Shown in pieces: positions 54,555-55,560 of a stretch of DNA of 64,000 bases. The notes beneath the pieces are model-generated. The model saw only the letters and a list, made by a program, of their open reading frames with translations, did not search any database and was not told the DNA's origin. Made by a program: the position numbers and the translations under genes. Position 1 is the first letter of the stretch. Every line of letters starts with the position of its first letter. Location of the stretch: assembly GCA_964486045.1 (NCBI GenBank), contig CAZALK010000012.1, forward strand, positions 96,001 to 160,000. The letters run 5' to 3'. The stretch is from an uncultured archaeon (GTDB taxonomy: Archaea; Asgardarchaeota; Lokiarchaeia; Sigyniarchaeales; SOKP01).

Positions 54555-54967
54555 AATACATAAGAAAAAGCGGAGTAAAATAATAACTATTTAGTTTTAA
54601 CTATTTTTCAGAAAAATTAGAGTAGATATAGGATATTTTTCTTAAATGGTAAACTAACAAATAACTCAGTTCATTATCTCAATGCTTTCCCTTCCAACTT
54701 CCCTTAAAAGAATTCGATTGATTATGATTTTCTCGCTTTTCATAACTTCATCATAATGTGTAACAATCTGATTAATGTATATCTCCTCTTTGAAGGGATG
54801 AGGCATAACTTCTTCAAGTCGAATTATAGAAACACCTAATAAGTTAAAATTAAGTAGGAAAATTAGAAACAATTTATAAAATTTCCTATTTTTCATTCGA
54901 CAAAAAAGAACGAAAATTGCATTAAAATTAAAAAGATGTTTATATTTGATCAAATTTTCACTTTTCT

Positions 54968-55477
54968 ATGTCAGATAGTGAAACATCAAATTCTGATGAA
55001 AGGTTACCCTTAGATACTAATGCACCGATGATAGATACCGTTGATGCATTCGGAAATCCAATAAATCTTACCGAGATTCTCAAAGAAAATAATGGTTTAA
55101 TAATTGACTTTCACAGAGCGGCATGGTGATATTACTGAAAAATTCAGCTAGGAAAATTAAACAAAAATATAGACGAAATTAAGAAAAGAAACGTTAAACT
55201 CATTACAATTATGACCGATAGAACTATGCCAGTAAAAAAACTCGCAGAAAGCAAAAAGTATGATTTTACTATTATAGCGGATGAAAAGGCAGAAATATCA
55301 AGACGGTATAAAGCATTCGGAAAACCTATAGACTTTGACAAGATAAAAATGTTGATAGCTATACCTACAACATATTTAATTGATACCAACGGGAAAATTG
55401 TCTGGCGATATCTCGGTAATAAAACAGAAAGACCTTCAATTGAAGCTATCCTAGAAGCCATCGATACTAAATTATAA
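54968..55477 (+). CDS. Peroxiredoxin-like (AhpC/TSA) selenoprotein, 169 aa, UxxU (TGA at 55127-55129 and 55136-55138)
   Basis: Read-through gives ...APMIDTVDAFGNPINL...IIDFHRAAW-U-Y-Y-U-KIQL...IIADE...IPTTYLIDTNGKIVWRY..RP. Both TGAs sit at the redox CxxC positions and a SECIS-like hairpin follows. Confidence 0.85.
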
Positions 55478-55494
55478 TCTATATCTATAAAAAT

Positions 55495-55560
55495 TGTTCT
55501 TGAATGATTCGAGTATAAAAAAATGAGATACTCGAGGACGACCTCGCAAAGGTTCATGAA
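55495..55560 (+). promoter_or_regulatory. Eukaryote-type SECIS element in the 3' UTR
   Basis: AUGA-U (55504-55508), perfect 8-bp stem UCGAGUAU/AUACUCGA, A-rich apical loop, G-GA-C (55536-55539). Confidence 0.75.

Follow-up and report, generated by a model that had tools for sequence, protein, structure and literature searches.

Two short ORFs lie on the forward strand of a lokiarchaeal contig, at 54968-55129 (53 aa) and at 55211-55477 (88 aa), and the question that they raise is whether they are pieces of a single gene whose TGA codons are read as selenocysteine (Sec) and which chemistry the encoded protein would carry out. The window, which is the whole 64-kb stretch of DNA analysed, lies on contig C12 of a metagenome-assembled genome of 5.18 Mb, with 31% GC and 45 contigs (the host genome, G000). 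The lokiarchaeal origin suggested beforehand agrees with the nearest named records, which are Promethearchaeota/Promethearchaeia MAGs; Promethearchaeota is the current NCBI name of Lokiarchaeota. The window gene very probably encodes an Asgard peroxiredoxin-like (PrxL) selenoprotein of the PrxL.1 form, with two Sec in 169 residues, for which we propose a role as an oxidoreductase of the thioredoxin/ResA type that forms a diselenide.

A single reading frame across two UGA codons

The preliminary description took the 88-aa ORF for only the C-terminal part of a gene, with an AhpC/TSA N-terminus upstream of two TGAs at redox positions as the sole breaks in the frame from the ATG at 54968, and the locus has this structure. 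The short ORF is in the same frame as the ATG, the two TGAs are codons 54 and 57 in the context DFHRAAW-U-YY-U-KIQ, and the translation is otherwise uninterrupted. The read-through protein matches the Pfam models AhpC-TSA (PF00578), at residues 18-146 with an E-value of 1.6e-24 (score 86.6 bits, where 26 is the cut-off), and Redoxin, at residues 20-162 with an E-value of 6.6e-19, so a single AhpC/TSA domain extends across both TGAs. In the corrected annotation, the two ORF fragments are one selenoprotein gene (Table 1).

Table 1. Features of the PrxL locus, in positions of the window
Feature	Position	Strand	Description
TATA-like box TTTATATT	54939-54946	+	About 22 nt 5' of the ATG; read from the sequence
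PrxL coding sequence	54968-55477	+	169 codons plus TAA; predicted Prx-like thioredoxin-fold selenoprotein, WUYYU redox box
UGA codon 54	55127-55129	+	Predicted to be read as Sec; position 1 of the redox box, proposed nucleophile
UGA codon 57	55136-55138	+	Predicted to be read as Sec; position 2 of the redox box, proposed resolving residue
Pro133 codon	55364-55366	+	Within AIPTTYLID, cis-Pro-type motif of CxxC oxidoreductases
Tentative closing helix I	55497-55560	+	UUCUUGA(A) with UUCAUGAA, 7/8 pairs; weak here
lokiSECIS core	55504-55538	+	26 nt past the TAA; sole such pattern in the window
lokiSECIS parts	AUGA 55504-07; 9-bp stem 55508-16 / 55528-36; 11-nt loop 55517-27; GA 55537-38	+	
Small hairpin GACCU-CGCAA-AGGUU	55540-55554	+	Directly after the SECIS GA; recovered by RNAalifold with four orthologs

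The TATA-like box suggests a leaderless or short-leader archaeal mRNA. The N-terminus of the protein, MSDSETSNSDERLPLD, is hydrophilic, and by eye neither a signal nor a membrane segment can be made out in it, in favour of a cytosolic location. The genes around PrxL (EamA transporter, PAP2, kinase-like genes, unknowns) give no hint of its function, and they include no redox partner and no mer or ars genes.

Conservation of the redox box

PrxL homologs are found in 33 of 61 related genomes by a search that reads through stops. Wherever a match extends across the redox box, it contains between one and three in-frame TGAs, and the lone match without TGA spans residues 2-48 only. The first redox column is TGA in all 35 aligned homologs and the second is TGA or Cys. 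The window protein and all UxxU forms contain no Cys, while nearly all UxxC forms contain the box Cys only, the two rows with a second Cys having at least one of these in an unverified tail. Homologs with Cys at the TGA columns had been named beforehand as a check on the Sec reading, and they exist: both columns are Cys in Lacibacter (Bacteroidota) homologs, which have a WCPYC box and a signal-like N-terminus, and the second is Cys in the UxxC paralogs.

Both TGAs are kept, as seen codon by codon, in the orthologs L008, L011, L012 and L013, and they are also kept in L044-L048, which are Promethearchaeota orthologs with the motif GAW-U-x-Y-U-K (UHYU in four of them) and with a SECIS wherever the contig runs past the stop. 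L047 and L013 are one UIYU gene, and both TGAs are retained in at least eight orthologs. In comparisons with three orthologs of 53-75% identity, pS is 0.67-0.78, which is saturated, while pN reaches 0.04-0.40 in the part before the TGAs and 0.15-0.24 in the part after them; both halves of the frame are therefore under purifying selection.

Two of the orthologs have particular features. L012 (G028:C25:28106-28608, minus strand) looks damaged, as its N-terminal 48 residues match separately, in a TAA-containing piece with a 25-nt overlap with the main match, and its SECIS has a broken closing pair and UUGA instead of AUGA. Either decay of this copy or a fault of the assembly may be the cause. L011 (G022:C130) ends, with the stop set by the trimming rule, at a TGA located 19 nt 5' of its SECIS, the two upstream TGAs being read as Sec. 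Eukaryotic SECIS elements have a minimum UGA-to-SECIS distance for recoding, and the terminal TGA of L011, if it is one, fits such a distance.

Three PrxL paralogs are present in the host genome, with the boxes UYYU (window), UIHC (C2) and USHC (C14). In the maximum-likelihood tree the window gene groups with L011 and L013 (support 99/96), and the UxxU forms are found in two separate, well-supported clades, the window clade and a U(S/T)YU clade located beside the USHC genes, often in tandem with them. The Sec/Cys state of the second box position has therefore changed at least twice, in a tree rooted at the midpoint only, from which no direction of change is claimed. The window clade is rare among congeners, being found in four of 37 sampled genomes, host included.

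Fold and active site of PrxL

The AF2 model of PrxL, which has a mean pLDDT of 89.4 and a pTM of 0.85, places the redox box between a strand (residues 43-49) and a helix (residues 55-66), the usual position of CxxC boxes. The top listed Foldseek matches are all of the peroxiredoxin type (Prx, Bcp/PrxQ and AhpE), the best one being Bcp4 (3hjp, TM 0.84), and the best PDB sequence match is Bcp/PrxQ (E-value 3.6e-9). In the alignment to Aeropyrum pernix Bcp (2cx3), U57 is on the peroxidatic Cys, U54 on Ser/Thr and R50 on Pro, and the catalytic Arg of Bcp (AKRAVFIV) aligns with P133 (AIPTTYLI). Of the canonical Prx motif PxxxT/SxxC only the Cys position is kept, by U57, as R50 and U54 replace Pro and Ser/Thr, and the canonical catalytic Arg is absent, with P133 in its place. 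In the alignment to ResA, AIPTTYLID is on the cis-Pro motif LPTSFLID. The residues invariant in the 30-sequence alignment A1 are R50, both box positions, D105, Y114, P133, I144, W146, Y148 and R155-P156. The alignments to Bcp and ResA and the fold matches together describe a Prx-like scaffold with catalytic residues of the thioredoxin/ResA type. The diselenide redoxin of the preliminary description is a reasonable reading, and all checks that were run are positive. It had already been published for PrxL.1 (PMC4989117), and its assignment to AhpC/TSA does not extend to the chemistry: as judged from its residues, PrxL is not a canonical AhpC/TSA peroxidase, since the Pro, Thr and Arg of Prx are missing from it and a WUxxU box and a cis-Pro-type motif are present.

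In thioredoxin-type chemistry the first position of the box is the nucleophile. In the mechanism that we infer, from Sec insertion and diselenide formation to substrate and reductant, the ribosome would read UGA54 and UGA57 as Sec, and the archaeal EFSec would deliver Sec-tRNA(Sec) under the direction of the single, eukaryote-like lokiSECIS located 26 nt past the TAA. Sec54 would attack a substrate disulfide or another oxidised substrate, Sec57, which is Sec or Cys in relatives, would resolve the intermediate to give an intramolecular Sec54-Sec57 diselenide, and a low-potential cellular reductant would re-reduce the diselenide. The potential of a natural diselenide couple would be unusually low for a redox pair of a strict anaerobe.

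The same selenoprotein could instead be a peroxidase, in which Sec57 reduces peroxide, becoming a selenenic acid, and Sec54 resolves it to the diselenide. The best structural matches, which are all peroxiredoxins, the alignment of U57 with the peroxidatic Cys of A. pernix Bcp and the top Pfam match, AhpC-TSA, are in line with this chemistry, and selenols react quickly with peroxides. Against it, R50, U54 and P133 replace the catalytic Pro, Thr/Ser and Arg of Prx, and the second position, which would be the peroxidatic one, is freely Cys or Sec. The Sec that is invariant in the family is at the first, not peroxidatic, position, and Sec-containing true Prx have a TxxU box (review PMC13188914), which favours the thioredoxin-type mechanism and makes a peroxidase unlikely. 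A third reading, in which the UxxU pair binds a soft metal or metalloid (Hg, As) and is not a catalytic redox couple, draws on other UxxU and multi-Sec small proteins of this genome and of the same review (PMC13188914), which are linked to mercury/arsenic genes; with no mer or ars genes among the neighbours of PrxL, and with a scaffold whose invariant cis-Pro-type motif is that of an oxidoreductase, metal binding is very improbable and is rejected in favour of the thioredoxin/ResA-type oxidoreductase.

Predicted selenocysteine decoding in the host genome

The lokiSECIS is defined by an AUGA before a 9-bp stem, a GA after the stem and an 11-nt loop, which has about five adenines first, an ultraconserved G as its last base and usually an A before it (Mariotti et al. 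2016, PMC4989117). The window element agrees with this definition (PMC4989117) in every feature: its stem strands, UUCGAGUAU/AUACUCGAG, pair perfectly, with eight Watson-Crick pairs plus one G-U, and its A-rich apical loop of 11 nt, AAAAAAAUGAG, ends in AG. The strict pattern has 11 matches in the 5.18-Mb genome, against none in an equally large, composition-matched genome simulated with a first-order Markov model, and located 5' of the matches are a SelD gene, three HdrA-VhuD pairs, the three PrxL genes and some small ORFs with several UGAs. Among the homologs of PrxL, a lokiSECIS is present in 33 of 35, of which 29 are found by a relaxed search and four more by eye, their ATGA having been clipped by ORF trimming. 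No Rfam model recognises the Loki-type SECIS at a permissive E-value, and the minimum-energy folds of the 3' UTR, over 66-123 nt, prefer pairings other than the SECIS hairpin, with unremarkable z-scores; the SECIS stem is recovered by a local fold and by the consensus fold of four orthologous UTRs (RNAalifold).

The genes for Sec synthesis and insertion, for which the preliminary description had called as confirmation, are all present in the host genome. The tRNA-Sec (anticodon tca, ARAGORN) is on C15, with SepSecS, whose 494 bits exceed the curated cut-off, at a distance of 1.1 kb and an EFSec-like GTPase about 4 kb away, which scores 231 bits against the bacterial SelB model, where the next translation GTPase scores 139 bits. 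C1 has a PSTK-like gene, whose score of 141 bits falls short of the equivalog cut-off, and there are two SelD genes, each with an in-frame TGA. For Sec decoding in the host, the PrxL gene serves as a clean positive control.

The rival readings of the TGAs themselves find little room beside these data. In one of them the TGAs are true stops, in a pseudogene or in two unrelated short ORFs, and the continuity of the domain is a remnant, as might be thought from standard ORF calling, which returns the 53-aa and 88-aa pieces only, and from the relative's copy in G028 (L012), which looks damaged upstream. The conservation pattern effectively refutes this reading: both TGAs are conserved in at least eight orthologs with saturated synonymous sites and low pN on both sides, the SECIS is 3' of the gene in 33 of 35 homologs, and non-Sec homologs have Cys at both TGA columns. 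Decoding of UGA as Trp, Cys or Gly, whether in the whole genome or through near-cognate read-through, is suggested only by the stop-codon recoding reported in some Asgard lineages (PMC9723677) and has no positive evidence, and it is rejected as scarcely credible, since the in-frame TGAs are exactly at redox Cys columns and paired with a SECIS, the full Sec machinery is present, and the G022 ortholog, under the trimming rule, appears to terminate at a TGA 19 nt before its SECIS.

Other elements in the host genome have the same or nearly the same pattern. The SelD genes are in tandem, about 2 kb apart (G000:C1:756646-757446 and 758869-759741; L003, L004), and 11 nt past the stop of the second there is a lokiSECIS resembling type I; SelD SECIS elements are mostly of type II (PMC4989117, PMC11227280). 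The match at G000:C16:46380 (minus strand; L043) has no candidate UGA-containing ORF within 640 nt. Those at G000:C7:51863 and G000:C35:3782 (both plus strand) have 12-nt loops, and one or the other may serve a VhuU gene missed by the strict scan.

Hairpin and helix next to the lokiSECIS core

A small hairpin follows the core of the window element, and a comparable one is present after 43 of 44 distinct lokiSECIS elements, which come from the host genome and its relatives (G000 and loci L011-L047) and include orthologous elements that are not independent; the stems differ and covary, and the loops mostly contain GC. In the host genome, a slightly relaxed scan gives 13 lokiSECIS matches, 12 of which have a hairpin of 4-7 bp that starts 1-5 nt past the GA, and about ten of these loops contain GC (CGCAA, GCA and UGC, for example). 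The sequence beyond the hairpin could often pair, as helix I, with the sequence 2-8 nt 5' of AUGA. At fixed geometry, helix I has at least 5 bp in 34 of the 44 elements, against 34% of shuffled flanks, a comparison in which the elements are not independent, and the set has 18 distinct inner sequences. The mismatched-partner control has to be read with the identical helix I sequence that is common to many orthologous elements. In the window, helix I has 4 bp at the fixed geometry, or 7/8 pairs at a different spacing.

Together the SECIS, the side hairpin and helix I would form a three-way junction, and the hairpin or helix I could be part of what the archaeal SECIS-binding factor recognises. 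The texts of two published accounts (PMC4989117, PMC11227280) describe a SECIS core, an upper stem, an apical loop, an internal loop and a lower stem, with no inserted hairpin after the SECIS, and this conserved hairpin may be unpublished. That a lokiSECIS larger than the published core, together with a second box position whose Sec/Cys state changed at least twice, goes beyond the published accounts is a tentative claim, for which we see some chance.

Other candidate selenoprotein ORFs

Three further ORFs with in-frame TGAs are followed by a lokiSECIS in the host genome. The first (G000:C25:38547-39041; L040:2048-2542; L053) has 164 codons, two adjacent in-frame TGAs in the context …VVHAD-U-U-ADVMKE… and a lokiSECIS 8 nt past the stop. 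It is present in 36 of 41 congeneric genomes, and both TGAs are kept even in paralogs of 40% identity, the single match without them being a contig-end fragment that ends before the site. It has no Pfam match, and its motif is absent from the 2024 supplement (PMC11227280).

The second is a small ORF (G000:C11:149133-149393; L041, L059) with four in-frame TGAs (CPFC…CQGC…HG-U-N-U-VLC…P-U) and a lokiSECIS 10 nt past the stop, and all four TGAs are kept in G022 and G028, the only other congeners that have it. The third (G000:C3:142679-142927; L042:880-1128) has 82 codons, which encode a hydrophobic segment followed by GN-U-SC, a lokiSECIS 11 nt past the stop and no Pfam match. This ORF is distinct from the VhuU/FrhA peptide, of about 50 aa, that published lists contain.

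Comparison with known systems

The family to which the window gene belongs is a published one. Lokiarchaeum has two genes for Prx-like selenoproteins, PrxL.2 with one Sec and PrxL.1 with Sec at both box positions and no other Cys, and for PrxL.1 a diselenide was proposed by analogy with SelL and the lokiSECIS was described (Mariotti et al. 2016, PMC4989117). Among the Asgard archaea that use Sec, 43.2% have Prx-like selenoproteins (Huang et al. 2024, PMC11227280), and the table of a 2026 review includes a "Prx-like thiol:disulfide oxidoreductase, UxxC/UxxU, 1-2 Sec" (PMC13188914). The published accounts treat the archaeal PrxL as a separate, uncharacterised Prx-like group. The gene is thus hidden from ORF callers, which miss it, and not from the literature, where it appears as PrxL.1 (PMC4989117). 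The 2016 paper already has the family, its form with two Sec, the hypothesis of a diselenide and the SECIS, all of them catalogued again in 2024 and 2026, and little is added as discovery.

The sequence file of the 2024 study, in which Sec is written as X, contains 13 members of the window clade, with AWXYYXK in three, AWXHYXK in nine and AWXIYXK in one, plus other two-Sec forms, and has no match to AAWXYYXK (PMC11227280). From the N-terminus to an identical end, …SIEAILEAIDTKL, the window protein is collinear with one of the 13, Lokiarchaeia_GCA_000986845_U (…HRGAWXYYXK…). A second entry of GCA_000986845 (GSWXIHC), an assembly that we take to be GC14_75, corresponds to the C2 paralog of the host genome, and GCA_019894975_U_2 reads the same as L013. 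The PrxL.1 of GC14_75 is like the window protein in its domain, in a W-U-x-x-U box with two Sec and in the absence of other Cys, and its gene has the same lokiSECIS geometry right past the stop. The two are from different species, and the window copy has HRAAW before the box, where most relatives have FRGAW. The window gene is an ordinary ortholog of PrxL.1, known since 2016, and there is no functional difference between this copy and the published PrxL.1 members.

Bcp/PrxQ proteins, represented by Sulfolobus solfataricus Bcp4 (3hjp) and A. pernix Bcp (2cx3), are the best match of PrxL in fold and in PDB sequence, but their catalytic Pro, Thr/Ser and Arg are absent from PrxL. Proteins of the ResA/TlpA/DsbE type (PDB 4nmu, 1st9) share with PrxL a box of the WCxxC type where helix alpha-1 begins and the motif xPT(S/T)(F/Y)LID, whose cis-Pro is assigned in PrxL by sequence alignment, and we propose on this likeness that PrxL shares a mechanism of the ResA/TlpA type. 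These proteins are Cys-based and membrane-anchored or secreted, whereas the window protein is Sec-based and has no signal or membrane segment, and the overall fold of PrxL matches Bcp/PrxQ better than the ResA type.

SelL is a eukaryotic Prx-like UxxU selenoprotein whose diselenide is reported to have been shown experimentally (Shchedrina et al. 2007, cited in PMC4989117 and PMC2398784). It shares with the window protein the thioredoxin/Prx-like fold, the UxxU box and one SECIS of the kink-turn type in the 3' UTR. SelL is found in aquatic metazoans, and its likeness to the window protein is one of motif, fold and SECIS.
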